This document shows positions 1 through 22,876 of a stretch of 64,000 nucleotides of DNA, piece by piece. The position numbers were made by a program, and so were the translations under genes. The DNA comes from Escherichia coli. GTDB taxonomy: Bacteria > Pseudomonadota > Gammaproteobacteria > Enterobacterales > Enterobacteriaceae. Location: the NCBI RefSeq assembly GCF_001677475.2, contig NZ_CP015229.1; one strand, given 5' to 3'. The notes under the pieces were generated by a model that saw nothing but the letters and a program-made list of their open reading frames with translations, had not been told where the DNA came from and did not search any database. How positions within the stretch are numbered: position 1 is the stretch's first letter; the number at the start of each line of letters is the position of its first letter.

Positions 1-480
1 GACACTTTGTTGTGCCGGGCGGTTTTGCAGAGAAGCGATCACTTCTTCGGTATCCAGATAATGGTAAGCCAGCATATAGGTGAGCTCATCAAGCACCACT
101 AAGTCGTAACGCTTGTCAGCCAGCATCCGTTTGCTTTCCGACCAGACCTCTTTCGCCGCGTCGATATCCGCTTGTCGGTTCTGTGTTTCCCAGGTAAAAC
201 CGGTTCCCATAATATGAAACTCAACCCCCAGCGGCTGGAGAAGGTTGTATTCGCCGTTGTCCCATTGCCCCTTGATGTACTGCGCAACCCCCACCGTTTT
301 GCCATGACCCACCGCGCGCGTCACAGTACCAAACGCGGCAGTGGATTTCCCTTTGCCGTTGCCGGTGAAAACAATCAAGATCCCTTTTTTCTCTATCGCC
401 GCCGCGACGCGCGTATCGACCTGTTCCTTCAATTTCTGCTGGCGCTGCACATGCCGTTCTGTTGAAATTCGCGCTTCCAT
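1..480 (-). CDS. ATP:cob(I)alamin adenosyltransferase paralog (BtuR/CobA/CobO family), N-terminal part; gene continues past window start
   Basis: Minus-strand frame from ATG (complement 478-480) with AGGA Shine-Dalgarno upstream; translation MEARISTERHVQRQQKLKEQVDTRV...GILIVFTGNGKGKSTAAFG...VVLDELTYM matches BtuR P-loop and motifs. Not in ORF track because it runs off the window. Confidence 0.8.
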   Translation of the reverse strand, partial: MEARISTERHVQRQQKLKEQVDTRVAAAIEKKGILIVFTGNGKGKSTAAFGTVTRAVGHGKTVGVAQYIKGQWDNGEYNLLQPLGVEFHIMGTGFTWETQNRQADIDAAKEVWSESKRMLADKRYDLVVLDELTYMLAYHYLDTEEVIASLQNRPAQQSV

Positions 481-489
481 TCATTTTCC

Positions 490-2142
490 TTAATGTCCCG
501 CAGGGCAACTGGCGCAGCGGTGTTGCTGCTCAAACTGACTAAAGAAATTATTGCCTTTATCATCTACCAGGATGAATGCGGGCAGATTTTCCACTTCCAT
601 CATCCACACCGCTTCCATACCCAGCTCCGGGTATTCAAGGCAACGCAGACTTTTGACATATTCTTGCGCCAGTAACGCAGCTGCACCGCCAATACTTCCC
701 AGATTGAAGCCGCCATGTTTGTGACAGGCATCGGTGACCTGCTGGCTGCGGTTACCTTTCGATAACATCACCAGACTGCCGCCAGCCGCCTGGAAGGTAT
801 CGACATAACCGTCCATTCGACCGCCCGTGGTTGGACCCAGTGAACCGCAGGCCATGTTCTCCGGTGTTTTCGCCGGGCCAGCGTAATAGACAATATGATG
901 CTTCAGGTAATCCGGCATCGGTTCGGCGCTATCCAGCCGCGCTTTTATTTTGGCGTGGGCGATATCGCGTGCCACTACGATGGGACCACTTAACGACACG
1001 CGGGTGCCTACCGGTAATCTGGCGAGATCCTGCATCACGTCACGCAACGGACGGTTTAGATCCAGATGTACATGTTGCGCGTGATTTTCTTCCCGCAGTG
1101 AGGCTGGAATATATTGCCCCGGATTGTGTTCGAGTTTTTCCAGCCAGATACCGTGCTTGTTAATTTTTGCTTTGATATTGCGATCGGCAGAACAGGAGAG
1201 CGCCATAGCTATCGGACAAGAGCCACCGTGACGCGGCAGACGAATGACGCGAATATCATGAGCGAAATATTTACCCCCAAATTGCGCACCAATACCAAAT
1301 TGCTGACTGGCCTCGAGCAACACTTTTTCCAGCTCAATATCACGGAATGCTTGTCCCTGCTCGTTTCCGCTGGTGGGCAAATTGTCGTAATATTTCGTTG
1401 AGGCCAGCTTGGCAACTTTTAAGGTTTGATCGGCTGAAAGCCCTCCGACGACAAAGGCGATGTGGTAAGGCGGGCAGGCAGCGGTGCCCAGCGATTTCAT
1501 TTTTTCGATTAAAAATGCGGTCAGTTTTTCTGGTTGCAATAAGGATTTGGTTTCCTGATAAAGTGCGGCTTTATTGGCGGAGCCGCCCCCTTTATTAACA
1601 CAGAGAAAATGGTACTCATTACCAGCGACAGCGTTGATATCAATCTGCGCCGGGAGATTGGTTTGCGTATTGACTTCGGTATACATATCCAGCGGCGCAT
1701 TTTGTGAAAAGCGCAGATTATTTTCCTGGAAAGTGGTGTAAATGCCTTTGCTTAAGGCTTCAGCGTCGTTACCTCCGGTCCATATCTGTTGCCCTTTACT
1801 GGCAACAATAGTTGCGGTGCCGGTATCCTGACAGTTGGGTAATACCCCTTTTGCTGAGACTTCAGCATTACGTAATAACTGCAACGCAACGTATTTATCA
1901 TTACTACTGGCCTGCGGATCGTTAAGAATGCTGGCGACCTGTTGCAAATGAGCGGAACGTAAGAAAAAAGAAGCTTCATAAAATGCCTGCCGGGCAAGCA
2001 GCGTTAATGCTTCAGGTGCGATTTTTATCACTTCTTCGCCGTCTAATTCCGTTACTGTAATATGCTGATCGCTAATTAATGTATATTCTGTACCGTCTTT
2101 ATTTTGTAGAAATGGTTCTTGCCAGATAAATGGTTTGGACAT
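490..2142 (-). CDS. fumD: Class I (Fe-S) fumarate hydratase family; probable mesaconase/fumarase
   Basis: 550-aa ORF, length and sequence typical of FumA/FumB-type hydro-lyases; sits in a glutamate mutase/methylaspartase cluster. The fumD symbol is from my recollection of the E. coli O157:H7 locus. Confidence 0.8.
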
Positions 2143-2249
2143 ATTTCACTTTTCACCTTAAACGTTAGTGTTACTTAATTGCCGTCTAACTTCATGATCC
2201 GGCTTATAAAAATGCATAGTCATTGGCTTCTGATTGCTTAAGATCCCCC

Positions 2250-3530
2250 TCAGGGCAGAGCAACGTTCGATTCATTGGGTTTTAATGCTTTACCCCGACA
2301 GCCCTCGCCGAAATGTTCGCCTTCCCACCGACTCACCATCGCAGCGCCCATTGCGTTGCTCATGACGTTTGTCGCGGAACGCCCCATATCAAGGAACGGA
2401 TCAACGCCCATCAGCAAGATCAGCCCCGCTTCCGGAATATTGAACTGGTTGAGCGTGGCGGCGATAACCACCATTGAAGCGCGTGGTACGCCAGCCATTC
2501 CTTTCGAGGTCAACATCAGGATCAACAGCATGGTGATTTGCTCACCGATGGATAAATGGATATTGCAGGCCTGGGCGATGAAAACTGTGGCGAAGGAGCA
2601 GTAGGCCATTGATCCAACGAGATTAAATGAGTAGCCAATGGGTAAGACAAAGCTGGCAATTTTGGGGGAAACGCCAAATTGCTCCAGTTTTTCAAGCGTT
2701 CCTGGAAAAGCCGCTTCAGAACTGGATGTGGTAAATGCCAGCAGGGCGGGTTCCGAAAGGGCGCGGGTCAGGCGTCTGATGCAGGGGCCGACATAAACGA
2801 TGGCCAGACCGATAAGCAGCACCCAAAGTAACAACATGGTGAAATAAAATTCACCCATAAAGATCCCGGCGCTCACCATAACTGCCAGTCCTCGTTCAGC
2901 AATCAATGCTGAAATAGCGGCGAATACGGTCAGGGGAGCGAAGAGCATGACGTAGCCAGTGAGCTTTAACATGGCATGTGCCAGCGAATCTAAGGCGTGA
3001 ACGATGGCGCTGCCTTTCTCGCCAATCGCCGTCAGGCTACAGCCGAGGAAAATTGAGAACACCACGATTTGCAAAATTTCATTGTGCGCCATGGCATCGA
3101 CAATGCTGGTGGGGAAAGCATGCGAAATAAATACTTTTAGCGTGAAGGGTTCTGACGCGACCACTCCAGTGGTTTCGGCACCGTGTGCAACAAAATTAAT
3201 TCCTGTACCTGGCATGAAGAAATTTACTGTTATTAAGCCTAAGGCAATTGACAGCAATGAGGCGCAAATAAATAAAAAGAGTGTTTTAGAAAAAATACGA
3301 CCAAGGGCTTTGGCATCGCCCATTTTAGCAATACCTACCACCAGGGTAGAGACCACTAACGGAGCGATAATCATTTTTATCAGTCGTAAGAAAATCGTCG
3401 TGAATATCGATATTTCTTGCGCATAGAGTTTTGCGGTTTCCGGTGAAGCAGTGTTATTGAGCACTACGCCGATAACCATTCCAAGTACCAGCGCCAAAAG
3501 AATCATCGTGGTTAAACTTATTTTCTTCAT
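2250..3530 (-). CDS. Dicarboxylate/amino acid:cation symporter (GltP/DctA-like), possible glutamate or C4/C5-dicarboxylate transporter
   Basis: Hydrophobic multi-TM ORF with DAACS-like motifs; start chosen at MKKISL (complement ATG 3528-3530) preceded by GGAGG; ORF-track start at 3551 rejected. Confidence 0.75.
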   Translation of the reverse strand: MKKISLTTMILLALVLGMVIGVVLNNTASPETAKLYAQEISIFTTIFLRLIKMIIAPLVVSTLVVGIAKMGDAKALGRIFSKTLFLFICASLLSIALGLITVNFFMPGTGINFVAHGAETTGVVASEPFTLKVFISHAFPTSIVDAMAHNEILQIVVFSIFLGCSLTAIGEKGSAIVHALDSLAHAMLKLTGYVMLFAPLTVFAAISALIAERGLAVMVSAGIFMGEFYFTMLLLWVLLIGLAIVYVGPCIRRLTRALSEPALLAFTTSSSEAAFPGTLEKLEQFGVSPKIASFVLPIGYSFNLVGSMAYCSFATVFIAQACNIHLSIGEQITMLLILMLTSKGMAGVPRASMVVIAATLNQFNIPEAGLILLMGVDPFLDMGRSATNVMSNAMGAAMVSRWEGEHFGEGCRGKALKPNESNVALP

Positions 3531-3580
3531 TTTTTCCTCCATCAGGTGCACGGCGATAAATCAGAATCAGGAGAAGTAGA

Positions 3581-3602
3581 TGCCTGAATAGAGATTCAGG
3601 CA
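3581..3602 (-). other. Perfect hairpin (tgcctgaat-aga-attcaggca) in intergenic gap inside the island operon
   Basis: Inverted repeat read directly between the DUF4387-like gene stop and the transporter start. Confidence 0.4.
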
Positions 3603-3690
3603 TCTACCTGCTATTACAACCTTACAAATAGCTGAAGTGTTGAACTGCAATAAGTGACGGGATGTCAGTTGGCTAAAAGTGTTCGGATTT

Positions 3691-4008
3691 TTACAAATCG
3701 AAACTCATATTTAATAAAGGTGCATGTTGCTGTGCACCATAGACATCATTGTCACCTACATTCCCGGAGATAATATCTCGTGGCATGACGATTTTTACTG
3801 CGTTAGAAGGATCAAACCAGACAATACGATGAATAAAGTCAGGTTCAACATGATATAAGCGCGCAATCAGTTCTGGGGTTAATTGCCCTGATGATTTAAC
3901 TCGCTCATAGTTTTCTTTGGTTTTAAATAAAATATCTAAAACCAGTTCGTAAGGTCCGGCATTTTTCGAACGAATGACTTGCGCCAGTGAGACAATTGAC
4001 TGTTTCAT
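3691..4008 (-). CDS. Small conserved protein of unknown function (DUF4387-like), partner of upstream AtuA-like gene
   Basis: 105-aa ORF; start overlaps upstream gene stop by 4 bp; family assignment from memory of DUF1446/DUF4387 pairing. Confidence 0.6.
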   Translation of the reverse strand: MKQSIVSLAQVIRSKNAGPYELVLDILFKTKENYERVKSSGQLTPELIARLYHVEPDFIHRIVWFDPSNAVKIVMPRDIISGNVGDNDVYGAQQHAPLLNMSFDL

Positions 4009-5375
4009 GCCTGAACTCCTTCTGGCGTCACCTGTTCAATATGGAAATCAAAACGCAGAGCGTCGTTGGCTTCAATCAGGTGATATATGGAAAATTCGTA
4101 TACTGGCCCGCCCTGGATATCAGAAGGGGAGAACGGGAACGCCAGGTTGCCTGCGGTAGCGATGCGGTTTTCATAGCCGTAGTGCAGCATAGTAGAGCGC
4201 ACCAGCGAGCAAACGCTGTTGGCAATTTCCTGGGTCGATGCAACTACATCTAGCACAATCCCCAGCTCATGCCCGGCAGTTTGCATCGGTTCATGGTCGC
4301 CCATCACCCCGTTTTTGCCGTACAGGTGGAAATTGATGCGAATGCTGTCATCGTCGAGCGACAGGTTACGCGAAACGCTGGTTTTGACTTCATCGATGAT
4401 TTTATCGATCCCGGCGATCATGATCGGGTCGCGCGTTCCTGCGATGGTCAGACAGCGGAAGCCCACTCGTCGCGCACCTTCCAGTTTCAGGGCATACGGC
4501 GTTCCTTCATGCTTAGAACCGCTGACGTACACTTCGCCGTCATTGACCGCTTTAAATGTGCAGCCTTTCAGGTTCAACACGCCGCCAGGTCCAGGCAGGA
4601 AGTAGGGATCGGATTTCTCATACAGTGTGTGTGCAGCCGCTGACGTTTCGGTAAATTTACGCTTCGGATTAAATGTCTTCAGCGTAAAGCCGTTGTCATC
4701 AATGATGCCCATCGCACAGTCAGAGCCTGAGCCGGGCGTTGCGGCGATTGCCGCGCATTCAAGGATTTTCCCACAATGCAGCGCCAGACCTTCATCAAAG
4801 CCTTGCATGATCGGTAGCGCAGCAAAGCAGGCCGGGTCGTAAGCGCGCCCGCCCAGCACCACTTGCGCGCCTTCTTTCAGCGCCTGCTGGAAGGGTTCGA
4901 TGCCCATTTGCGCGACGATATACGTACTTTCGTCAATCGCGTCGTGGGTTAACGGCGGGACAAAATCCAGCGCCGTGATTTTGCCGTTATCCAGCGCCTG
5001 GTGGACGATGGCTTTGTCAACGTCTGCCGGGATCAACGCCATCGAGAACGAGAGGTGCTCTTCCCGGGCAATCTCATGAATTATTTCTCGGCACCACTCC
5101 AGGTGTGGTGCGGCACCAGAACCGCCAGCCGTTCCGATCACCACCGGTATATTATTTTGCACGCCTGCGGTGATCATATAGCGCAGATCGCGCTTGACCC
5201 CTGCGCGATCGGTAAACGGTTTGCCTGCCCCGAGGTAGTGGGGGCCTGGATCGGAAGAGCCTGCATCAACGGCGATCAGATCGGGCGATTCTGCCATCGC
5301 TTTGCGGAAGCTCTCTTCCGGGAATCCATACCCGAGGATTGCCGTTGGCGATAAGACTTTAAAAGAACGAGCCAT
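4005..5375 (-). CDS. AtuA-like (DUF1446) family protein of unknown function
   Basis: 456-aa ORF, in-operon between methylaspartase and the DUF4387-like gene; family call from sequence feel, not a search. Confidence 0.6.
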   Translation of the reverse strand: MARSFKVLSPTAILGYGFPEESFRKAMAESPDLIAVDAGSSDPGPHYLGAGKPFTDRAGVKRDLRYMITAGVQNNIPVVIGTAGGSGAAPHLEWCREIIHEIAREEHLSFSMALIPADVDKAIVHQALDNGKITALDFVPPLTHDAIDESTYIVAQMGIEPFQQALKEGAQVVLGGRAYDPACFAALPIMQGFDEGLALHCGKILECAAIAATPGSGSDCAMGIIDDNGFTLKTFNPKRKFTETSAAAHTLYEKSDPYFLPGPGGVLNLKGCTFKAVNDGEVYVSGSKHEGTPYALKLEGARRVGFRCLTIAGTRDPIMIAGIDKIIDEVKTSVSRNLSLDDDSIRINFHLYGKNGVMGDHEPMQTAGHELGIVLDVVASTQEIANSVCSLVRSTMLHYGYENRIATAGNLAFPFSPSDIQGGPVYEFSIYHLIEANDALRFDFHIEQVTPEGVQA

Positions 5376-5378
5376 TTG

Positions 5379-6620
5379 TTAATCCTTAGCCTGCAACAGC
5401 GCGATAGTACGATTCATTTCGTTGAAGACAATATCGAGGCCTTCGTCAAAGCCCATCCCAGGTTTTACCAGCATACGCATAGGGCGAGCGGCAAGGGCGA
5501 CGTGGACACAGGTGCGTGCACTGACATCAGTTTCATTGCAGGTGCCGCCCTGGTACGCTTCCATGTTGTGGCTGTTGCAATAAAGAACTGCATCGACGAT
5601 GTTGTGAATACTGCCCAGATCCGGGGTTTTGATTTGCACCATGTGGCAACTGGCGGCATCAGTGAAATCAACAATATCCTGGTAGGTGTTACACCATTCA
5701 TCGGCCACAATTTTCACGCCGGAACCGAGGCGCATCAGCTCTTTGGTAATCGCGGTCAGCAGGCGAATTTGATCGGGCTTGTTACCGGCATCGACCGGCC
5801 CTTCAATGTAGAGCGGCAGGCCTTGCGCTTCTTTTTCCAGGCTGGCGATGTATTGCGCACAGCGAAGCGGATCCATATCGAAGATCAGACCGATAGTGCC
5901 GTATACATCGATGTGCAGGGTTGGGTGGTAGCGTGCGCTGGTGCGCTTGCTCAGAATGCGATCCGACAGCCAGCGGACATATTCGCGCAGTTTTTCACCT
6001 TTAAAGCCCAGCTTCTCTTCGACGTTATTAATCAGCGCATGGGGCAGCACGTCGATGCCTTTAAGGATCATCTTATCGACGGCGATATATCGATCGTCGC
6101 CGCTCTGACCAAATAATGGAATGGATTCCGCCACGCGTGGCAACTGCCATTCATCACAGACCACTTCAGTTTTCAGACGGCCGGTTGCCAGCGCGGCAGC
6201 ATCAAGCAGCGCCTGTGATAATCCGTAGCGCACGGCGGTATGCAGCAAGTTGCCGTCAATACGCAATTTGTCGAAGAAACGGGCATTCGGCAGGAAAGCA
6301 TCCACATCGCGGCCTACCAGTAATGGCTTAATATGGTCGTTGAGGAACGGAATAAAGTGCTCTGCGAGGAACAGTGGATCGCGACCACCTGCCCCGGAAT
6401 ACTGTACGGCAGCACAGTCACCTACAGCGACCGCGCCGTTTTCCAGAATCAACTGTACCGATACGCACTCCCCAGCCTGACGTACGGCGTTAAACCCTTG
6501 TGTTACTGGCTCCCCGGTATAAAAAAAGCCGTCGTGACCCGCTCCGTTTTTTATCGCCTGCTGGTCATCGAAATAGAATGAGGAATAGCCAGCGGTGAAC
6601 AGGGCCTGTTTTATTTTCAT
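5379..6620 (-). CDS. 3-methylaspartate ammonia-lyase (methylaspartase)
   Basis: 413-aa ORF with blocks CAAVQYSGAGGRDPLF, HIDVYGTIG, HMVQIKTPDLG, KPGMG.DEG matching clostridial methylaspartase; enolase-superfamily length. Confidence 0.9.
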   Translation of the reverse strand: MKIKQALFTAGYSSFYFDDQQAIKNGAGHDGFFYTGEPVTQGFNAVRQAGECVSVQLILENGAVAVGDCAAVQYSGAGGRDPLFLAEHFIPFLNDHIKPLLVGRDVDAFLPNARFFDKLRIDGNLLHTAVRYGLSQALLDAAALATGRLKTEVVCDEWQLPRVAESIPLFGQSGDDRYIAVDKMILKGIDVLPHALINNVEEKLGFKGEKLREYVRWLSDRILSKRTSARYHPTLHIDVYGTIGLIFDMDPLRCAQYIASLEKEAQGLPLYIEGPVDAGNKPDQIRLLTAITKELMRLGSGVKIVADEWCNTYQDIVDFTDAASCHMVQIKTPDLGSIHNIVDAVLYCNSHNMEAYQGGTCNETDVSARTCVHVALAARPMRMLVKPGMGFDEGLDIVFNEMNRTIALLQAKD

Positions 6621-8065
6621 TATGGTCTTCCTATTAATTTACTGTGGGATACAGCATTGATGTCATCTACAACCATCTGGAATGTCGGTTGGCGTCCTTC
6701 AAAGCGTGCGCGTTCCGCAACGTAATCGTGGTGGAGGTCGAGAATATCTTTTGGCAATGGAACGGCTCCGGCTTCCAGTACGCGTATCGCGCCGGTGTTG
6801 TCACGGACCGGAAGAATTTTGCCCGCGTTGCAGGCGGCTGGCGCAAATGGCACATCCAGTACGCCCGCTTCAAATGCCAGCACCGTTCCGCGCGCAATAT
6901 CATCATTACCCAGTTCGAACACTTTATTCAGTACTGCGCGAACCTCGCTCTTAATCAGTTCAATTTCCAGTTCAACCGCAGGGCACGGCGGAAATTTCTG
7001 CTCATTGACCATGTTGAGCATCTGGCGGGAGGCTTTTAGCCCCTGAATGTTGGCAGCGGCAGTCGGGATGCCCCAGGCTTCGTGCGGACTTTTGGTGATG
7101 ACTTTGGTGGCACCAGACATCCCCGCGACGGCTGCGCCCCAGGAGATAATAGCGAACGCTTTCGATTCGTCTTCCGGAAAGCCGCCCATCCACTGGTGAA
7201 ACACGGTACTTAATTCATAGTCGGTATAGCCATAGCTCTGAAAGTAGTCATGTGCAAGTTCACGCAGAGACTGGATCGCCGCAACATCCTGCGTCAGGCT
7301 GCCGACCTGTCCATAACCAACGGTGATAGATTTCACACCCTGTTCCAGTGCCAGCAATCCTTCGATTATCGCGATAGAGTGCGAGATAAACGGCGGGATC
7401 AGCGTACCCGTTAGTGGGCCAAACGGTTCGCGGTTGATGCGGATCCCGTGTTCTTCATACATCCCCATTAAACGGTCGCAGTACTGCCAGTCGCGGATCG
7501 ATTTTTCCAGCGTTACGCGTTTGGCATACGGAATGTTGTAGGAAATGCCGCCGCCTTCATAACTGGTAAAGCCGCTGGACATCGAGATTTCAGCCAGCAG
7601 ACGTGCATCTGGCGTGCCGTGGCGGATCTGTAGCGGTTTTTGCAGGGTTTCGGTGAGGCGACGGCAAGCAGCGACACCATGGTTAACTACCGGTAAACCG
7701 TTCAGTTTAGAGGTTCCGGCTTCGATGGATTTTTTAATCCCTACAGCCGCTTCTTCGTACCGATTCAGACGGGTATATGCATCGATGGTGCTTGGCAGCA
7801 GATCGCACTCTTCTTGTAGTGTTTTCAGTAGTTCGATGTGTTCGTCCATCAGCGCCACACCTGCGCGTGGTTGGCTAAGGGTTTTTCCTTCCTTGTCTGC
7901 TTTCAGCAGCGCAAGAGAGAAGCGTTTATGCTCAGGAATGGTTTGTTGGTATTTAACGCCATCTTCAAAGTTTTCAACATCCTTGCCGGTTTCCCAGGTT
8001 TTCAGTACCTGTTGCCGCTCGGTCATGAATTCGTCATGGGTTAATTTCTTATTTCGAAGTTCCAT
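6620..8065 (-). CDS. Glutamate mutase epsilon (E, catalytic) subunit
   Basis: 481-aa ORF; MELRNKK..., PRAGVALMDEHIELL, HGTPDARLLAEI, FHQWMGGFPEDESKAF match GlmE/MutE; 1-bp overlap with downstream methylaspartase gene. Confidence 0.9.
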   Translation of the reverse strand: MELRNKKLTHDEFMTERQQVLKTWETGKDVENFEDGVKYQQTIPEHKRFSLALLKADKEGKTLSQPRAGVALMDEHIELLKTLQEECDLLPSTIDAYTRLNRYEEAAVGIKKSIEAGTSKLNGLPVVNHGVAACRRLTETLQKPLQIRHGTPDARLLAEISMSSGFTSYEGGGISYNIPYAKRVTLEKSIRDWQYCDRLMGMYEEHGIRINREPFGPLTGTLIPPFISHSIAIIEGLLALEQGVKSITVGYGQVGSLTQDVAAIQSLRELAHDYFQSYGYTDYELSTVFHQWMGGFPEDESKAFAIISWGAAVAGMSGATKVITKSPHEAWGIPTAAANIQGLKASRQMLNMVNEQKFPPCPAVELEIELIKSEVRAVLNKVFELGNDDIARGTVLAFEAGVLDVPFAPAACNAGKILPVRDNTGAIRVLEAGAVPLPKDILDLHHDYVAERARFEGRQPTFQMVVDDINAVSHSKLIGRP

Positions 8066-8083
8066 TGATTGCAGCCTTAATTG

Positions 8084-9472
8084 TTATAGGGTTAAGCATT
8101 GAATACTGGTGCGCGCGGCGGCCAGCGGATCGACTCTGGCGACGTTTGCCAGCAGTGGTAATAGCCCCCGGGAATCGCGGTAATATTCAAATTCGGTCGG
8201 TAAGAGAATGCGTTTACCGTCGTCGTTTAACTCGCGGTATTTCAACCAGTGATGCATATCGAACTGACTGGCACGCGAGAGCCATCCGCCGGAACCCACG
8301 ACTTTACGCACGGTTGTCAGGTCACGTCCCATCTGTAAATCGACATTGCCGACGCAGGTGCAGACCTCTTTTTTGGTGCCCGCATGTCTTTCGGTGGCAT
8401 AACCCACACACAGTCCGGCCAGGACGGTATCGAAATATTTCTCTTCTGCATTTGCGGGTAAGTAGTCGGGATGAGCGACTAAATGACGGAGATAATGATA
8501 AAAAGCGTCCAGCTGTGCGGGTTGCTGAGCAAAATTCACATTGACTAACTCTTTCGCACTTTCACCAACCACCACTGCCGAGACGCGCATTCCCAGATCG
8601 CCTTCCACCGTCCGTTTTACGAAGGGTTCCGGTACGCCGTGTAAAACGGTGTCGGGCGAGAGCGTGTTGGCACAGGCGGAATAGACATCGGTGGTTGCGC
8701 CGCCCATGTCGATCAGCATGAACTCTTTCCAGCTGTGATCGACGTTACTGATTGCCTTAACCAGTTCAAAGACCGTCCATGGTGTCGGCCTTGGTTCTTC
8801 GCCTGTTTTATCAACAATGACATCCAGCCCTTTCCCTTTAACGATGCGTTTAAGGAATATGTCGCAAATAGCCTGGCGTGCGGCTAAAGGGTTCGGATGG
8901 TCAAGATCGGGCAGAACGTTGTCGACGATGGTCAGGTCTTTATGCCCGAGGAGCTCCTGCACCTCGTCCTGAATATCCCGGTTTCCGGCATAAATAATGG
9001 CGCAGTCGAGTTGGGATTCTGCCAGCACACGGGCGTTATTCAGTCCGTAACTTTCTTCTCCGCCGTCGGTGCCGCCGGTGAACAAGAGAATATCGGGCTG
9101 CGTTTCTTCCAGTGCCTGGATATCACGGCGGTTCAGCTTGTAGGAGTAATATTGCGCAATTTTAGCCCCCGCAGAGTGAGCGGTTACTTTCGCGGTTTCC
9201 AGGGTGATAGAAGGCACCAATCCCATTGCGGCAACCGCCAGCCCACCTTTGGCAGAGGAGGAATACTTTAATGCAACCTCACCACTGTTTAACAGGGGGA
9301 GGGCATCATCTACGTTTAACACCTGGTCCAGGCTGGAGAAAAACCCCTTCGCCAGATGATGGGTGGTGGTTGGGGTCAGAACGTGGTTAACCAACGTTAA
9401 CGCGTCCCCCTCCCGGGTGAAGAGGGCTGCTTTGGTCCACGTCGAACCAATATCGACAGAGACGATTTGCAT
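8084..9472 (-). CDS. Glutamate mutase component L (MutL/GlmL-type putative reactivating chaperone)
   Basis: 462-aa ORF between the S and E subunit genes, the position GlmL occupies in clostridial operons; N-terminus [18 protein letters not shown] is actin/hsp70-fold like. Confidence 0.8.
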   Translation of the reverse strand: MQIVSVDIGSTWTKAALFTREGDALTLVNHVLTPTTTHHLAKGFFSSLDQVLNVDDALPLLNSGEVALKYSSSAKGGLAVAAMGLVPSITLETAKVTAHSAGAKIAQYYSYKLNRRDIQALEETQPDILLFTGGTDGGEESYGLNNARVLAESQLDCAIIYAGNRDIQDEVQELLGHKDLTIVDNVLPDLDHPNPLAARQAICDIFLKRIVKGKGLDVIVDKTGEEPRPTPWTVFELVKAISNVDHSWKEFMLIDMGGATTDVYSACANTLSPDTVLHGVPEPFVKRTVEGDLGMRVSAVVVGESAKELVNVNFAQQPAQLDAFYHYLRHLVAHPDYLPANAEEKYFDTVLAGLCVGYATERHAGTKKEVCTCVGNVDLQMGRDLTTVRKVVGSGGWLSRASQFDMHHWLKYRELNDDGKRILLPTEFEYYRDSRGLLPLLANVARVDPLAAARTSIQCLTL

Positions 9473-9921
9473 CAGATTGCCTCTTCAAGAATGCGAGTAT
9501 CAACGTCATGACGTTGGTTGATATCGTGGGCCATCAGCTGACAAACATCTTCTAAGTCATGACTTGGGGAAAAGACGCGATCAAATCCCATCTCTTTGAA
9601 CTTGGTTTCCACGTCAGCGAAGTCATGTTTTCCGACCACCAGGTTACCGCCCACATAGAGCAGGATGTTACCCAGCCCACGCTCGATGCAGCGTTCGCGC
9701 ATGCCCAGACAATCGATATCGCCATGCCCATAGATAGAAGAGACGACAATCGCGTCAGCGCCAGTTTCAATAGCAGCATCAATATATTCGTCCTGGCTGA
9801 CCATTACGCCCAGATTAATGACTCTGAAGTCGTGGTTGCTAAAAACGCGGTCCAGAACTTTATTGCCTACTGCATGGCAGTCCGCGCCAATAACGCCAAT
9901 CACAAGTGTTGCTTTCTTCAT
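9472..9921 (-). CDS. Glutamate mutase sigma (S, B12-binding) subunit
   Basis: [24 protein letters not shown] carries the DxHxxG cobalamin-binding motif; start moved to internal ATG (complement 9919-9921) with AAGGA SD; ORF-track start 9984 rejected. Confidence 0.9.
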
Positions 9922-10468
9922 GGGTAATCCTTTGTAAGACAGAGAGTAAAATAAGTTACACACGTCGTATTTATGGCCGCTCATAACGGCACAGGTTTAA
10001 TATCACAGGAGTGTCTTTATCTGACCGTAATGTTGCAATTGATCTATTTTCAAAATGTCTTTCGGGAAATGATTGTTTAAAGTGTGTTTTCAAATTCTCA
10101 TTTTAATTCAGTGTGTTATGTCAACTAATGTCATGAATGTTAAATTTTTAAAATTAACTTGATTTGATGTATTGAGATAATTGTGATCAACTTCTAATTT
10201 GCATTTTTGTGACGTGGCTTTAGCCATGAGTAAATGCATTTCATAAAAGTTAAGTCGAATTTCACTGCAATTCATCTCTGCTTAATGTAAAAATAATGTT
10301 GAAAATAACAAATAATTAATGATTCATGCGAATTATGACCTTTGTTAGCTCTTTTGATTTTTCGTAAAAAAGAAAAGCACATGAAGGTGCTACCAGTACG
10401 AGAAACGTTAATCAAAAGTTTTATTACGTCTGGCAATAACGCAGGCCATTTTTCGCGACAGGAGGGAT
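9922..10468 (-). promoter_or_regulatory. AT-rich leader/promoter region of the glutamate mutase operon
   Basis: About 550 bp non-coding, very AT-rich, directly upstream of the first operon gene; no specific sites identified. Confidence 0.4.
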
Positions 10469-10891
10469 TTAATCAGTATAATCCTCATACAATAGGTCAG
10501 GATTTACAGAACCGTTAACGGGGTTTTGGTGTTGAAATTTAGAAATGGTGGAGTCAATCAATGAAGACAGTATCGAAAAAATGACTGTGTCAGAACTAAT
10601 TTCAATTAATCCTTCTCGTTGTTGATCAAAAAAGATATTTATCTTGATTTCATTTGTACTACGGCAATCAATATGTAGTAATTTTTGATCGCTGAGATTT
10701 TCTGTTTCATAAATGTTTTTGGCGATAGTCGGATGTATTGATGCCAGACATCTGCTCAGATAAGCCATATCCTTTAAGGAACTCCCCGCTGAGTAGAGGA
10801 TGTCAGAGAATTTTTGTGTGTCAACTGTTGTCTCTGAAGCGTATGTTGCATTGACAGGAAGAGTATTGAAAGAGATCTGAGATGGTATCAT
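10469..10891 (-). CDS. Hypothetical acidic small protein (140 aa), second gene of AT-rich two-gene module
   Basis: Complete ORF in AT-rich DNA; Asp/Glu-rich, no motif I recognise. Confidence 0.55.
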   Translation of the reverse strand: MIPSQISFNTLPVNATYASETTVDTQKFSDILYSAGSSLKDMAYLSRCLASIHPTIAKNIYETENLSDQKLLHIDCRSTNEIKINIFFDQQREGLIEISSDTVIFSILSSLIDSTISKFQHQNPVNGSVNPDLLYEDYTD

Positions 10892-10972
10892 TATTTAAAT
10901 CTTTCCGTGAGTAATAAAAATTAATCCCCAGGCATTGTTTAGCAATATTTGCCATAGGGGATATATAGAAAA

Positions 10973-11917
10973 TTAAAGTATTTTATTGGCTTCGGTTAAC
11001 TGATCTATAACCAGTGCCAGATTGGTAAACATTTTGAAAAAGCGATACTGGCTCGGAATATCTCTTTCAAAGACGAAACATTCAAGGTCATTGTTTGAAA
11101 AATAAAGGACTAGTGTTGCTGATTCGTCAGGGAAAACATGGAAATGTATCTGGTTACCAGAAGGAGGATAGTCCAGAAGAAGGGTATCTTTGCCCGTCAC
11201 ATACCTGTTGTTGTCGTGGACGCTACGCTCACACTTCATCAGAGGTGTCAGGATACTCATGTATTCATCTGATGTTAATTTATTAAAATCATCATTCATT
11301 TTAAAGAAACGATAAAGTAACAGTACATCCTCTTGCGTAACCGGTTCGTTTGTTTTTAGAGGGAAATAAGCGGGAACCAGAAGATGAGGTTCTAATCTAT
11401 TTTGTTGAGCGCTATAACTGAATTTGAACATAAATTCTGGATCGCTCATCAATTGAGCGACATAATTATGCCTGGCTTCAAAAATTTTAATTTTTATCAG
11501 GTTGAATAAGTCTGTTTCGTCATCCTGTATTAAAAGACATTGGCCATAGCAGCCTGGATTTTTTTCATTATAAGCAGAAACGGTTATTCTGTCAGAGGTG
11601 TCAACGTTATATTCAAAAGCCAGATAGTGACCTTCTTCATCGCGATTTGTTTCCAGGTTATTTAAATTCATCACATGAAGTGTTTGCAATGCTGATTCAA
11701 TGAGTTGTTGACTCTCTGAGGTAAATGTTTTGCGCTGCGTTGTATAAAGTGTATCAATTCCAACGACTATCCGATGTGGATCAAGGATGGCGGCAATCAT
11801 CTTTATTACCTGCACAGTCACGGGTGATGTCATTGATTCTTCATCTGTTTTTAGAGGATCATTAGATGGCCAACCTGAGAAGCGATTGACAGCCGAACCG
11901 ATATTATCTGGACTCAT
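10973..11917 (-). CDS. Hypothetical protein (314 aa), first gene of AT-rich two-gene module
   Basis: Complete ORF, same strand and 81 bp upstream of the 140-aa ORF; no TM segments or known motifs recognised; spot-checked 60-bp lines are about one-third G+C. Confidence 0.55.
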   Translation of the reverse strand: MSPDNIGSAVNRFSGWPSNDPLKTDEESMTSPVTVQVIKMIAAILDPHRIVVGIDTLYTTQRKTFTSESQQLIESALQTLHVMNLNNLETNRDEEGHYLAFEYNVDTSDRITVSAYNEKNPGCYGQCLLIQDDETDLFNLIKIKIFEARHNYVAQLMSDPEFMFKFSYSAQQNRLEPHLLVPAYFPLKTNEPVTQEDVLLLYRFFKMNDDFNKLTSDEYMSILTPLMKCERSVHDNNRYVTGKDTLLLDYPPSGNQIHFHVFPDESATLVLYFSNNDLECFVFERDIPSQYRFFKMFTNLALVIDQLTEANKIL

Positions 11918-12722
11918 AGCAGCAACCTCATTGTAATCAAGCGAGGCGCTGAGCGTACTCGGCTATAGAAAAACTAACTTGCAAAAATCGCTCATTTTTC
12001 ATTTATCAGGCGAAAGTGGCCTCTGTTCACTCAGAAACAATCACTCCCGCTAAGTCATACCTGTTTCATCGATACATTTAAGTGATTATTACTAATGAAA
12101 CAATAACATAACGGGCTTACGGTCGGTGCTCATAAAGGCAACAATCAATTAACTTTGATAAAAATATGTTATGTAAAATAGCAACAAATTGGCTACTCTA
12201 ATCAATTGGTATTATAAAAAGAGGATAAGGCGGTTCTGTTAAATAAAACACTGGTTTTTTATCTATACCTTTTCATTGTAATAATTGTGTTGCATAAATA
12301 TTTCACAATAAATTAACAATAAAATCACCAATGATCTATGGTTTATACATAATTAACATATTTGGTTGGTTTTGATATAAATCAATTTTTAATTCTTGAA
12401 AAAAATCTGCAAAACACGATAAATTGTCGTAGATCAAATTGGTGAGATCGTGACAATTTCGCTATAAATTGATCACTGTCGAAAAATGCAAATTTGCTCA
12501 ATAAAAACCTGTTTATTGTAAGGATTTTGCGGCGTAATATAATTACGGGATCAATTTGGTTTATTCATTAACATATTTGTAACTTTTTTATCATTGTCTT
12601 TTCCTCTTTTGATGAAATGGCAACGATAGAGGCGAGCAAATAATTTTGTATTGGGGCATGCGTGTGACCCTTTCTAACGGGGTTCACTCTCGGAGTCTTC
12701 ATGCGATGAGCAAGGAGTCATG
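11918..12722 (+). promoter_or_regulatory. cydAB upstream regulatory region, AT-rich
   Basis: Long AT-rich non-coding region before cydA; in E. coli the cydAB promoters are controlled by ArcA, FNR and H-NS (established knowledge); individual sites not resolved by eye. Confidence 0.5.
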
Positions 12723-16016: not shown

Positions 16017-17110
<1,094 letters not shown>

Positions 17111-17113
17111 GCC

Positions 17114-17542
17114 ATGGCCAGAGCGCGTGGACGAGGTCGTCGCGATCTCAAGTCCGAAATCAACATTGTACCGTTGCTGGACGTACTGCTGGTGCTGTTG
17201 CTGATCTTTATGGCGACAGCGCCCATCATCACCCAGAGCGTGGAGGTCGATCTGCCAGACGCTACTGAATCACAGGCGGTGAGCAGTAACGATAATCCGC
17301 CAGTGATTGTTGAAGTGTCTGGTATTGGTCAGTACACCGTGGTGGTTGAGAAAGATCGCCTGGAGCGTTTACCACCAGAGCAGGTGGTGGCGGAAGTGTC
17401 CAGCCGTTTCAAGGCCAACCCGAAAACGGTCTTTCTGATCGGTGGCGCAAAAGATGTGCCTTACGATGAAATAATTAAAGCACTGAACTTGTTACATAGT
17501 GCGGGTGTGAAATCGGTTGGTTTAATGACGCAGCCTATCTAA
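17114..17542 (+). CDS. tolR: Tol-Pal system protein TolR
   Basis: 142-aa ExbD-like ORF. Confidence 0.97.
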   Translation: MARARGRGRRDLKSEINIVPLLDVLLVLLLIFMATAPIITQSVEVDLPDATESQAVSSNDNPPVIVEVSGIGQYTVVVEKDRLERLPPEQVVAEVSSRFKANPKTVFLIGGAKDVPYDEIIKALNLLHSAGVKSVGLMTQPI

Positions 17543-17606: not shown

Positions 17607-18872
17607 GTGTCAAAGGCAACCGAACAAAACGACAAGCTCAAGCGGGCGATAATTATTTCAGCAGTGCTGCATGTCATCTTATTTGCGGCGCTGATCTGGA
17701 GTTCGTTCGATGAGAATATAGAAGCTTCAGCTGGAGGCGGCGGTGGTTCGTCCATCGACGCTGTCATGGTTGATTCAGGTGCGGTAGTTGAGCAGTACAA
17801 ACGCATGCAAAGCCAGGAATCAAGCGCGAAGCGTTCTGATGAGCAGCGCAAGATGAAGGAACAGCAGGCTGCTGAAGAACTGCGTGAGAAACAAGCGGCT
17901 GAACAGGAACGCCTGAAGCAACTTGAGAAAGAGCGGTTAGCTGCTCAGGAACAGAAAAAGCAGGCTGAAGAAGCCGCAAAACAGGCCGAGTTAAAGCAGA
18001 AGCAAGCGGAAGAGGCGGCAGCGAAAGCGGCGGCAGATGCTAAAGCGAAGGCCGAAGCGGATGCTAAAGCTGCGGAAGAAGCAGCGAAGAAAGCGGCTGC
18101 AGACGCGAAGAAAAAAGCAGAAGCAGAAGCCGCCAAAGCCGCAGCCGAAGCGCAGAAAAAAGCCGAGGCAGCCGCTGCGGCACTGAAGAAGAAAGCGGAA
18201 GCGGCAGAAGCAGCTGCAGCTGAAGCAAGAAAGAAAGCGGCAACTGAAGCTGCTGAAAAAGCCAAGGCAGAAGCTGAGAAGAAAGCGGCTGCTGAAAAGG
18301 CTGCAGCTGATAAGAAAGCGGCAGCAGAGAAAGCTGCAGCCGACAAAAAAGCAGCAGAAAAAGCGGCTGCTGAAAAAGCAGCAGCTGATAAGAAAGCAGC
18401 GGCAGAAAAAGCCGCCGCAGACAAAAAAGCGGCAGCGGCAAAAGCAGCAGCTGAAAAAGCCGCTGCAGCAAAAGCGGCCGCAGAGGCAGATGATATTTTC
18501 GGTGAGCTAAGCTCTGGTAAGAATGCACCGAAAACTGGGGGAGGGGCGAAAGGGAACAATGCTTCGCCTGCCGGGAGTGGTAATACTAAAAACAATGGCG
18601 CATCAGGGGCCGATATCAATAACTATGCCGGGCAGATTAAATCTGCTATCGAAAGTAAGTTCTATGACGCATCGTCCTATGCAGGCAAAACCTGTACGCT
18701 GCGCATAAAACTGGCACCCGATGGTATGTTACTGGATATCAAACCTGAAGGTGGCGATCCCGCACTTTGTCAGGCTGCGTTGGCAGCAGCTAAACTTGCG
18801 AAGATCCCGAAACCACCAAGCCAGGCAGTATATGAAGTGTTCAAAAACGCGCCATTGGACTTCAAACCGTAA
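17607..18872 (+). CDS. tolA: Tol-Pal system protein TolA
   Basis: 421-aa ORF with N-terminal TM segment, long Ala/Lys/Glu-rich helical domain II and C-terminal domain III. Confidence 0.97.
   Translation: MSKATEQNDKLKRAIIISAVLHVILFAALIWSSFDENIEASAGGGGGSSIDAVMVDSGAVVEQYKRMQSQESSAKRSDEQRKMKEQQAAEELREKQAAEQERLKQLEKERLAAQEQKKQAEEAAKQAELKQKQAEEAAAKAAADAKAKAEADAKAAEEAAKKAAADAKKKAEAEAAKAAAEAQKKAEAAAAALKKKAEAAEAAAAEARKKAATEAAEKAKAEAEKKAAAEKAAADKKAAAEKAAADKKAAEKAAAEKAAADKKAAAEKAAADKKAAAAKAAAEKAAAAKAAAEADDIFGELSSGKNAPKTGGGAKGNNASPAGSGNTKNNGASGADINNYAGQIKSAIESKFYDASSYAGKTCTLRIKLAPDGMLLDIKPEGGDPALCQAALAAAKLAKIPKPPSQAVYEVFKNAPLDFKP
17980..18480 (+). repeat. Low-complexity tandem repeat DNA encoding TolA domain II (A/K/E-rich)
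   Basis: Visible reiterated gcggc(a/t)gc(a/t)gaaaaagc units; generates spurious antisense ORFs. Confidence 0.85.
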
Positions 18873-19004: not shown

Positions 19005-20297
19005 ATGAAGCAGGCATTACGAGTAGCATTTGGTTTTCTCATACTGTGGGCATCAGTTCTGCATGCTGAAGTCCGCATTGTGATCGACAGCGGTGTAGAT
19101 TCCGGTCGTCCTATTGGTGTTGTTCCTTTCCAGTGGGCGGGTCCTGGTGCGGCACCTGAAGATATTGGCGGTATCGTTGCTGCTGACTTGCGTAACAGCG
19201 GTAAATTTAATCCGTTAGATCGCGCTCGTCTGCCACAGCAGCCGGGTAGTGCGCAGGAAGTTCAACCAGCTGCATGGTCTGCGCTGGGTATTGACGCTGT
19301 GGTTGTCGGCCAGGTCACTCCGAATCCGGACGGCTCTTACAATGTTGCTTATCAACTTGTTGACACTGGCGGCGCACCGGGTACTGTACTTGCTCAGAAC
19401 TCGTACAAAGTGAACAAGCAGTGGCTGCGTTATGCTGGTCATACCGCTAGTGACGAAGTATTTGAAAAACTGACCGGCATTAAAGGTGCGTTCCGTACCC
19501 GTATTGCCTACGTTGTTCAGACCAACGGCGGTCAGTTCCCGTATGAACTGCGCGTATCTGACTATGACGGTTACAACCAGTTTGTCGTTCACCGTTCACC
19601 ACAGCCGCTGATGTCTCCGGCGTGGTCACCGGATGGTTCTAAACTGGCTTATGTGACCTTCGAAAGCGGTCGTTCCGCGCTGGTCATCCAAACGCTGGCA
19701 AATGGCGCTGTACGTCAGGTGGCTTCATTCCCACGTCACAACGGCGCACCTGCATTCTCGCCAGACGGCAGCAAACTGGCATTTGCCTTGTCGAAAACCG
19801 GTAGTCTGAACCTGTACGTAATGGATTTGGCTTCTGGTCAGATCCGCCAGGTGACTGATGGTCGCAGTAACAATACCGAACCGACCTGGTTCCCGGACAG
19901 CCAGAACCTGGCATTTACTTCTGACCAGGCCGGTCGTCCACAGGTTTATAAAGTGAATATCAACGGCGGTGCGCCACAACGTATTACCTGGGAAGGTTCG
20001 CAGAACCAGGATGCGGATGTCAGCAGCGACGGTAAATTTATGGTAATGGTCAGCTCCAATGGTGGGCAGCAGCACATTGCCAAACAAGATCTGGCAACGG
20101 GAGGCGTACAAGTTCTGTCGTCCACGTTCCTGGATGAAACGCCAAGTCTGGCACCTAACGGCACTATGGTAATCTACAGCTCTTCTCAGGGGATGGGATC
20201 CGTGCTGAATTTGGTTTCTACAGATGGGCGTTTCAAAGCGCGTCTTCCGGCAACTGATGGACAGGTCAAATTCCCTGCCTGGTCGCCGTATCTGTGA
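19005..20297 (+). CDS. tolB: Tol-Pal system periplasmic protein TolB
   Basis: Recognised TolB sequence with signal peptide; start at second ATG (430 aa). Confidence 0.97.
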
Positions 20298-20307
20298 TAA
20301 TAATTAA

Positions 20308-20853
<546 letters not shown>

Positions 20854-20862
20854 GAGAATTGC

Positions 20863-21654
20863 ATGAGCAGTAACTTCAGACATCAACTATTGAGTCTGTC
20901 GTTACTGGTTGGTATAGCGGCCCCCTGGGCCGCTTTTGCTCAGGCACCAATCAGTAGTGTCGGCTCAGGCTCGGTCGAAGACCGCGTCACTCAACTTGAG
21001 CGTATTTCAAATGCTCACAGCCAGCTTTTAACCCAACTCCAGCAACAACTCTCTGATAATCAATCCGATATTGATTCCCTGCGCGGTCAGATTCAGGAAA
21101 ATCAGTATCAACTGAATCAGGTCGTGGAGCGGCAAAAGCAGATCCTGTTGCAGATCGACAGCCTCAGCAGCGGTGGTGCAGCGGCGCAATCAACCAGTGG
21201 TGATCAAAGCGGTGCGGCGGCATCAACGACGCCGACAGCTGATGCTGGTACTGCGAATGCTGGCGCGCCGGTGAAAAGCGGCGATGCAAACACGGATTAC
21301 AATGCAGCAATTGCGCTGGTGCAGGATAAATCCCGCCAGGATGACGCAATGGTGGCATTTCAGAATTTCATCAAAAATTACCCTGATTCAACTTACCTGC
21401 CAAACGCCAATTATTGGCTGGGTCAGTTAAACTACAACAAGGGTAAAAAAGATGATGCGGCGTACTATTTTGCTTCGGTAGTAAAAAACTATCCGAAGTC
21501 ACCAAAGGCTGCAGATGCGATGTTTAAAGTCGGTGTCATCATGCAGGACAAAGGTGACACCGCAAAAGCGAAAGCCGTATACCAGCAGGTTATCAGTAAA
21601 TACCCTGGTACTGATGGCGCTAAACAGGCACAAAAACGTCTGAACGCGATGTAA
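20863..21654 (+). CDS. cpoB: Cell division coordinator CpoB (YbgF), TPR protein
   Basis: 263-aa ORF with signal peptide, coiled-coil region and C-terminal TPR repeats. Confidence 0.95.
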   Translation: MSSNFRHQLLSLSLLVGIAAPWAAFAQAPISSVGSGSVEDRVTQLERISNAHSQLLTQLQQQLSDNQSDIDSLRGQIQENQYQLNQVVERQKQILLQIDSLSSGGAAAQSTSGDQSGAAASTTPTADAGTANAGAPVKSGDANTDYNAAIALVQDKSRQDDAMVAFQNFIKNYPDSTYLPNANYWLGQLNYNKGKKDDAAYYFASVVKNYPKSPKAADAMFKVGVIMQDKGDTAKAKAVYQQVISKYPGTDGAKQAQKRLNAM

Positions 21655-21818: not shown

Positions 21819-21894
21819 GGGTCGTTAGCTCAGTTGGTAGAGCAGTTGACTTTTAATCAATTGGTCGCAGGTTCGAATCCTGCACGACCCACCA
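21819..21894 (+). tRNA. lysT: tRNA-Lys (anticodon UUU)
   Basis: 76-nt gggtcgttagctcagttggtagagcagttgacttttaatcaattggtcgcaggttcgaatcctgcacgacccacca, anticodon loop cTTTTaa, CCA encoded. Confidence 0.97.
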
Positions 21895-21922
21895 ATCGCT
21901 AAGGTGGAAGCGGTAGTAAAAC

Positions 21923-21994
21923 GTGAAGGATAACGTTGCGTCAGCAACGGCCCGAAGGGCGAGACGAAGTCGAGTCATCCTGCACGACCCACCA
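21923..21994 (+). repeat. Spacer repeat ending in a tRNA-Lys 3' fragment (tcctgcacgacccacca)
   Basis: gtgaaggataacgttgcg.cagcaacggcccg.agggcgag..gaag.cgagtcatcctgcacgacccacca recurs three times in the array. Confidence 0.7.
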
Positions 21995-22029
21995 CTAACA
22001 TAGTTAGTTGTAGTATCCAGCGTAGTATC

Positions 22030-22105
22030 GGGTGATTAGCTCAGCTGGGAGAGCACCTCCCTTACAAGGAGGGGGTCGGCGGTTCGATCCCGTCATCACC
22101 CACCA
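22030..22105 (+). tRNA. valT: tRNA-Val (anticodon UAC)
   Basis: 76-nt gggtgattagctcagctgggagagcacctcccttacaaggaggg...cacccacca. Confidence 0.97.
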
Positions 22106-22107
22106 CC

Positions 22108-22183
22108 GGGTCGTTAGCTCAGTTGGTAGAGCAGTTGACTTTTAATCAATTGGTCGCAGGTTCGAATCCTGCACGACCCACCA
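22108..22183 (+). tRNA. lysW: tRNA-Lys (UUU)
   Basis: Identical to the first tRNA-Lys copy. Confidence 0.97.
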
Positions 22184-22234
22184 CTAATTACGGTGGGTTC
22201 GGTGGAAGTAGTTTGTAGTATCCAGCGCAGTATC

Positions 22235-22310
22235 GGGTGATTAGCTCAGCTGGGAGAGCACCTCCCTTACAAGGAGGGGGTCGGCGGTTCGATCCCGTCA
22301 TCACCCACCA
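22235..22310 (+). tRNA. valZ: tRNA-Val (UAC)
   Basis: Identical to the first tRNA-Val copy. Confidence 0.97.
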
Positions 22311-22313
22311 CTC

Positions 22314-22389
22314 GGGTCGTTAGCTCAGTTGGTAGAGCAGTTGACTTTTAATCAATTGGTCGCAGGTTCGAATCCTGCACGACCCACCA
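22314..22389 (+). tRNA. lysY: tRNA-Lys (UUU)
   Basis: Identical tRNA-Lys copy. Confidence 0.97.
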
Positions 22390-22417
22390 ATTTTAACATC
22401 AAACTCAGATGTTAAGC

Positions 22418-22487
22418 GTGAAGGATAACGTTGCGCCAGCAACGGCCCGTAGGGCGAGCGAAGCGAGTCATCCTGCACGACACACCA
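22418..22487 (+). repeat. Spacer repeat with degenerate tRNA-Lys 3' fragment (tcctgcacgacacacca)
   Basis: Second copy of the spacer element, with one substitution in the acceptor-stem fragment. Confidence 0.7.
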
Positions 22488-22535
22488 ATTTTAAAGATTG
22501 GTTCCGAGTAGAAATCTTTCAGGTAACACCCGTAT

Positions 22536-22611
22536 GGGTCGTTAGCTCAGTTGGTAGAGCAGTTGACTTTTAATCAATTGGTCGCAGGTTCGAATCCTGC
22601 ACGACCCACCA
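22536..22611 (+). tRNA. lysZ: tRNA-Lys (UUU)
   Basis: Identical tRNA-Lys copy. Confidence 0.97.
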
Positions 22612-22644
22612 TCCTGAATGATTAAAGCAGCATAATCCCGCAAG

Positions 22645-22720
22645 GGGTCGTTAGCTCAGTTGGTAGAGCAGTTGACTTTTAATCAATTGGTCGCAGGTTC
22701 GAATCCTGCACGACCCACCA
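22645..22720 (+). tRNA. lysQ: tRNA-Lys (UUU)
   Basis: Identical tRNA-Lys copy, last gene of the array. Confidence 0.97.
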
Positions 22721-22724
22721 ATGT

Positions 22725-22751
22725 AAAAAAGCGCCCTAAAGGCGCTTTTTT
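22725..22751 (+). terminator. Rho-independent terminator of the tRNA operon
   Basis: aaaaaagcgccctaaaggcgctttttt: GC stem flanked by A- and T-runs. Confidence 0.85.
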
Positions 22752-22775
22752 GCTATCTGAGATATTCAAAGATTC

Positions 22776-22876
22776 GAACCTGCAGCAGGTTCGAGTTGAG
22801 CGCAGCGAAACAACGGAGCCGCTCGCGGCGACGGCCCGAAGGGCGAGCGAAGCGAGTCATCCTGCACGACCCACCA
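22776..22876 (+). repeat. Third spacer repeat with tRNA 3' fragment, downstream of the terminator
   Basis: gattcgaacctgcagcaggttcgag...cggcccgaagggcgagcgaagcgagtcatcctgcacgacccacca; T-arm-like and acceptor-like fragments without a full tRNA. Confidence 0.65.

Follow-up and report, generated by a model that had tools for sequence, protein, structure and literature searches.

TolA domain III is the binding partner of TolB, of the phage protein g3p and of colicins. Domain II, which precedes it, is made up of the repeat Lys1-2-Ala3-4-(Glu/Asp) (PMC10666116). A structured domain II is required for force from the TolQR motor to reach the outer membrane and for Pal to accumulate at septa, and it is needed for outer-membrane stabilisation and efficient import of ColE9 (PMC10666116). 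In the membrane anchor of TolA a Ser-His-Leu-Ser motif has been assigned a role, with His22 being essential (PMC10666116). The AlphaFold picture of the protein is a helical hairpin of ~220 Å, with CpoB binding at residues 280-313 (PMC8928145). Domain II of TonB has an analogous role, being likewise a repetitive and structured periplasm-spanning spacer (Glu-Pro/Lys-Pro dipeptide repeats) that transduces the force of a 5:2 motor and is partly interchangeable with TolA domain II (PMC10666116). In contrast to TolA, the TonB domain forms a polyproline II helix instead of an alpha-helix and has no sequence similarity to its TolA counterpart; when swapped into TolA it restores outer-membrane stabilisation only partially (PMC10666116). 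At the DNA level, tolA of Escherichia coli K-12 MG1655 carries "13 imperfect repeats of 15 or 18 bp" (Zhou, Michiels, Aertsen 2012; PMC3477136).

Here we analysed a stretch of 64,000 nucleotides from an E. coli genome (RefSeq assembly GCF_001677475.2, contig NZ_CP015229.1), referred to as the window. The initial annotation pointed to a tandem low-complexity repeat at 17980-18480 within domain II of tolA and described it as expected for TolA. Tandem Repeats Finder (TRF) arrays indeed overlap across 17994-18484, and repeats in domain II are published for this protein (PMC10666116, PMC3477136). The gene and its neighbours are arranged as follows.

16418-17110, plus strand: tolQ, motor partner of TolA (Pfam MotA_ExbB; RefSeq)
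17114-17542, plus strand: tolR, motor partner of TolA (Pfam ExbD; RefSeq)
17607-18872, plus strand: tolA, cell envelope integrity protein TolA (GTG start, 1266 bp, 421 aa; from the list of open reading frames)
17784-18512, plus strand: domain II of TolA, predicted alpha-helical hairpin with helices at residues 60-200 and 204-302 and a turn at 201-203 (AlphaFold2)
18579-18863, plus strand: domain III, TolA C-terminal domain, residues 325-419 (Pfam PF06519, E = 2e-38)
19005-20297, plus strand: tolB, downstream tol-pal gene (Pfam TolB_N/PD40; RefSeq)
20332-20853, plus strand: pal, downstream tol-pal gene (Pfam OmpA; RefSeq)
20863-21654, plus strand: cpoB/ybgF, downstream tol-pal gene (Pfam TolA_bind_tri/TPR; RefSeq)

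The product matches the NCBIfam equivalog NF007065 over its full length with 554 bits (cutoff 213) and the equivalog TIGR02794 with 308 bits (cutoff 59.45), and solved structures of E. coli domain III (1tol, 2x9a, 3qdp, 1s62) match residues 292-421. The N-terminal anchor motif S18/H22/L29/S33 is present in the translation (IIIS18AVLH22VILFAAL29IWSS33) and falls into a helix predicted by AlphaFold2 at residues 3-34, in agreement with the single N-terminal transmembrane helix that bears the Ser-His-Leu-Ser motif in TolA. A further neighbouring open reading frame is a 4HBT thioesterase, ybgC, according to Pfam. RefSeq annotates tolA at the corresponding position in every matched genome that was listed or fetched, and in the collinear locus of E. 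coli NY1601 the same genes stand at the same coordinates. Thus, equivalog models, PF06519, anchor motif, helical domain II and neighbouring genes all identify the product as TolA: the gene is tolA and 17980-18480 corresponds to domain II's C-terminal two thirds.

Some further signals lie in or near the operon. A sigma-70-like promoter match is found inside the 3' end of tolA at 18767-18796 on the plus strand (TTGTCA, 18-nt spacer, TAAACT); situated ~200 bp upstream of tolB, it might be an internal tolB-pal promoter. Rfam recognizes the CpoB/ybgF intercistronic RNA thermometer between pal and cpoB (20754-20892, plus strand; 142 bits, gathering threshold 51). Downstream of cpoB follows a tRNA cluster (21819-22876, plus strand) with five genes for tRNA-Lys and two for tRNA-Val, among which three RtT-element matches are interspersed.

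The domain II model was obtained with single-sequence AlphaFold2 (pTM 0.25), with block-mean pLDDT values mostly of 78-89 in the helices and lower values near the turn and the helix ends. The predicted hairpin agrees with the published AlphaFold description of a helical hairpin (PMC8928145). The repeat itself comprises the following elements, all on the plus strand.

17838-18500, plus strand: low-complexity segment rich in Ala, Lys, Glu, Asp, Gln and Arg, residues 78-298 (20-residue windows with at least 90% of these residues)
17994-18278, plus strand: degenerate upstream repeats with periods of 12, 15 and 24 (TRF scores 31-68; 45-nt family D2)
18277-18460, plus strand: higher-order repeat with a period of 78 bp, 2.3 copies (TRF score 252, 83% matches)
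18279-18485, plus strand: tandem-repeat tract of 13 units, residues 225-293 (parsed as 4 x 18 nt and 9 x 15 nt)

Residues 125-292, encoded by the initially annotated stretch, consist of 54% Ala, 24% Lys, 14% Glu and 4% Asp, and the compositionally biased segment (17838-18500) extends beyond this stretch. The 13 units read, in order, KKAAAE, KAAAD, KKAAAE, KAAAD, KKAAE, KAAAE, KAAAD (units 1-7) and KKAAAE, KAAAD, KKAAAA, KAAAE, KAAAA, KAAAE (units 8-13); all are imperfect and each has a unique nucleotide sequence. The primers used to delimit the tract in the 2012 study (PMC3477136) match exactly at 18273-18292 and 18458-18479.

The comparison with other tolA alleles proposed in the initial annotation shows that the unit count equals that of the reference K-12 allele (13), which, on the terms set in that annotation, makes this copy uninformative. 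MG1655 tolA (WP_000030637.1, '13TR') shares the length of 1266 bp/421 aa, the operon context and all 13 units, which follow one another in identical order. The two genes differ at 11 nucleotides, nine of them in domain II; as all 11 differences are synonymous, the proteins are identical. Because of this identity with K-12, the window allele is expected to function as reference TolA does. Among complete genomes strain 88-3493 comes closest, with 6 differing positions, of which one, in domain III, is non-synonymous. Judged by its sequence, the window allele is the majority K-12-type 13-unit form, ordinary and already known.

A tolA gene was detected in 5425 of the 5426 complete E. coli genomes. 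Allele lengths were taken from two evenly spaced samplings of the ranked hits, with 40 and 60 rows, in which 27/40 and 40/60 genomes, respectively, have a match of 1266 bp, the 60-row lengths being match spans. Other match lengths in the sampled genomes are 1185, 1188, 1203, 1215, 1224, 1251, 1254, 1263, 1275, 1281, 1290, 1299, 1305 and 1311 bp; all of them deviate from 1266 by multiples of three. In nine intact alleles that were fetched and translated, the differences in length are in-frame indels within residues ~211-303, and the unit counts range from 9 to 16. These natural alleles consist of the same gene and unit types and are near-identical outside the repeat tract; they differ from the window allele by in-frame indels of 15-81 bp, some of which reach degenerate units upstream of unit 1, whereas the window has none of these indels. 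The ST131 allele carries 16 units (436 aa, 1311 bp), and that of O157:H7 (394 aa, 1185 bp) has a 27-residue deletion extending upstream of unit 1. This is in line with a survey of 234 E. coli isolates, in which 8-16 units were found and 13 units accounted for 66% (PMC3477136). The claim that repeat number varies between strains is thus confirmed, with 9-16 units here and 8-16 published, and the share of ~67% at the 13-unit length in complete genomes independently reproduces the figure of 66% from 2012.

Beyond the complete E. coli genomes, a conserved 20-mer from the start of domain III, GATGATATTTTCGGTGAGCT, matched two Escherichia tolA loci in a species-representative genome collection (L013 and L019). 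One of them keeps 13 units and has four residues inserted in the degenerate zone upstream, and the other has several indels spread over domain II. Since indels thus occur in the degenerate upstream zone of these two representatives too, the whole region at 17980-18480 is, on this comparison, indel-prone over longer evolutionary distances. An exact 60-mer of the window repeat (18425-18484) is absent from the same collection. The 20-mer GATGATATTTTCGGTGAGCT also occurs in six metagenome-assembled contigs from Akkermansia, Melioribacteraceae, Rubritalea, Bacteroidales and Dehalococcoidia (L012, L014-L018); these are chance matches with no tolA homology by blastn. A separate case is E. coli NIPH17_0036 (L010, 601-1742): its tolA copy measures 1142 bp, a length not divisible by three, and carries a pseudogene annotation (frameshifted, internal stop), which may reflect either true inactivation within the repeat or a fault of the assembly.

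With respect to the wider window, the best identity to a complete E. coli genome is 98.5% for 8000-32000, 98.4% for 1-12600 and 96.8% for 40000-64000, while tolA itself, at 99.1-99.5% identity to complete-genome copies, lies above the rest. Positions 1-12600, upstream of cydAB, hold an accessory gene cluster on the minus strand with cobO, a class I fumarate hydratase, a dicarboxylate symporter, methylaspartate ammonia-lyase and the subunits E, L and S of glutamate (methylaspartate) mutase. This part is covered to at least 80% in 1116 of 5426 complete E. coli genomes, and most of the others match only at 80-90% identity. From these identities the lineage of the window seems not to be represented among the 5426 RefSeq complete genomes.

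Repeat number was further proposed to affect sensitivity to phage and colicins. For phage this has been demonstrated on engineered alleles: plating of phage fd at all other unit counts tested reaches 28-43% of the 13-unit level (PMC3477136). In the engineered strains deoxycholate tolerance rises with unit number, and high salt at pH 5 is tolerated best with 6-13 units (PMC3477136). The proposal for colicins holds for domain II as a whole, as deletion of the entire domain abolishes killing by ColE9 and a disordered linker in its place slows ColE9 import about ten-fold (PMC10666116). An effect of natural repeat number on colicins is not documented in these two studies (PMC10666116, PMC3477136); the repeat-number phenotypes in the 2012 study are those for deoxycholate, salt at pH 5 and phage fd, with colicins not among them (PMC3477136).

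The tract is also known to be unstable. Contractions arise at a frequency of 6.9e-5 in the wild-type parent and 1.0e-5 in a recA mutant; they depend on RecA and are increased in uvrD mutants, and deletions of 5 units strongly predominate (PMC3477136). We therefore consider how such a tract may work and change. The Lys1-2-Ala3-4-(Glu/Asp) repeat forms a long alpha-helix, a rigid spacer that spans the periplasm and transduces force; it links the inner-membrane anchor, which couples to the TolQR motor via His22, to domain III, where TolB is engaged and which filamentous phage and group A colicins exploit. The reiterated coding DNA, with its units of 15 or 18 bp and its periods of 33 and 78 bp, is prone to expand or contract in frame by unequal recombination or slippage, and this gives rise to the length polymorphism among E. 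coli strains. Each unit of 5-6 residues is expected to lengthen the helix in the hairpin's second arm by ~7.5-9 Å; over the natural range of 8-16 units, domain III would accordingly be displaced by a few nanometres. The explanation that best accounts for all observations together is a K-12-type TolA spacer repeat that is polymorphic by expansion and contraction, with antisense open reading frames as passive by-products. We hold this with high confidence, and nothing in the data contradicts it.

The polymorphism could alternatively reflect an adaptive contingency (bet-hedging) locus, in which selection keeps the repeats for rapid switching of TolA length and thereby trades bile-salt tolerance against phage, osmotic or acid stress. 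In-frame length variants in about one third of the sampled genomes, their association with lineages (e.g. 1311 bp in ST131, 1185 bp in O157:H7), the measured contraction frequency and the opposing phenotypic effects of repeat number (PMC3477136) would fit such a locus. However, the 13-unit allele dominates at ~67% of the sampled genomes and 13 units are retained in the Escherichia genome E69, whose tolA is ~95% identical; together this suggests stabilising selection on length instead of frequent switching. In addition, imperfect and sequence-unique units lower the slippage rate, expansions were absent among 150 colonies (PMC3477136), and a spacer domain may simply tolerate variation in length. 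We consider selection for such switching to be rather unlikely.

A second possibility is that no true tandem duplication exists and that the repeats are a chance product of an Ala/Lys/Glu-rich composition. This bears on how far the array extends, and was addressed by the autocorrelation of the sequence at each lag relative to 2000 codon shuffles, which control for the Ala/Lys/Glu composition. At 18279-18485 the lags 15, 33, 48, 63 and 78 lie above all 2000 shuffles (z 4.2-5.5), with z = 5.4 for lag 15 and z = 5.5 for lag 78 and 0/2000 shuffles reaching the observed value. In contrast, lag 24 alone stands out at 17979-18278, and weakly (z = 3.4, 2/2000 shuffles), while lag 15 falls below the shuffle mean; at 17838-17981 no lag exceeds the codon shuffles. 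TRF likewise places a period of 15 with 12.3 copies at 18282-18475 (score 118) and a period of 33 with 2.8 copies at 18264-18357 (score 111), besides the 78-bp array with the highest score. The upstream copies of the 45-nt family share 64-73% identity. Since only 18279-18485 beats the codon shuffles strongly, the clear tandem array, at ~207 bp, is narrower than the 500 bp initially annotated, and the remaining ~300 bp are low-complexity sequence with degenerate repeats. As natural indels, moreover, take out or add whole units, composition as the sole origin is refuted for 18279-18485 and remains valid only in part, for the upstream 300 bp; as an account of the repeat overall it is very improbable.

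Within the tandem array proper, the period of 78 bp corresponds to five units. The copy at 18279-18356 is identical to the next at 67 of 78 positions, and the longest exact direct repeat in the tract region, 17 nt, has a spacing of 78. We infer that this near-repeat (18277-18460) is the likeliest substrate for the 5-unit deletions, which would predominate because the higher-order period equals five units. In nature an allele occurs whose match, at 1188 bp, falls 78 bp short of the length in the window.

On the opposite strand the initial annotation expected long spurious open reading frames. Two are indeed present, and codon shuffles reproduce frames of this kind.

17945-18619, minus strand: antisense open reading frame of 224 aa, TTG start, judged a by-product (list of open reading frames)
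18064-18528, minus strand: antisense open reading frame of 154 aa, GTG start, judged spurious (list of open reading frames)

Each of the three antisense frames has an open stretch of 171-225 codons. When the codons of domain II are shuffled, an antisense stretch of at least 150 open codons appears in 78% of trials and one of at least 224 in 26%, so that long antisense frames are expected from composition; they are passive consequences of GCN/AAR/GAR codons. For the 154-aa frame the end point varies between alleles and 78 of 81 substitutions are non-synonymous, summed over six comparisons that are not independent. By these comparisons the frame behaves as non-coding.

The 224-aa frame deserves closer consideration as a genuine overlapping gene, as its start and stop are unchanged relative to tolA in 12/12 alleles examined, among them those of Escherichia genomes with nucleotide identities of ~95% and ~90%, and substitutions are almost all synonymous in it. 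Its third codon positions, however, coincide with those of tolA; the substitution pattern therefore cannot discriminate for this frame and was counted neither for nor against coding. A stop in this frame would need a Tyr, His or Gln codon on the sense strand, and the Ala/Lys/Glu tract is without these. Through the coinciding third positions, constraint on TolA alone accounts for both the openness and the synonymous pattern, and the shuffles reach the length of this frame as noted above. The predicted product is of low complexity (Ala, Phe and Ser) and its start is TTG. A search from either antisense start to 19100 found no minus-strand promoter-like site, eleven RefSeq tolA records examined carry no antisense gene annotation, an Rfam scan inside tolA gave no match on either strand, and an exact look-up of both antisense products, also as Met-initiated sequences, found neither in a collection of ~15 billion proteins. 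Expression signals, an independent selection signature and recognition by gene callers were thus all lacking, and an overlapping gene at this site is scarcely credible.

The minus strand further contains eight terminator-like motifs (hairpin plus T-run) at 18122-18483 within the 224-aa frame, where shuffles give 3.0 ± 1.8; the motifs probably arise as a by-product of the GCN-GCN-AAA codons. That the 224-aa frame is expressed, or that the T-run hairpins terminate antisense transcription through tolA, is exceedingly unlikely; if either were true, the repeat would carry a second, strand-specific function.

For the window itself the spacer repeat of K-12 type is of little significance, as the tract belongs to the textbook picture of TolA, polymorphism and phenotypic effects have been published for it and the allele has the majority reference form. 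For annotation, the two long antisense open reading frames should not be recorded as genes. For the biology of tolA, the 78-bp period would provide a simple reason, at the level of the sequence, for the predominance of 5-unit deletions in the 2012 study (PMC3477136).
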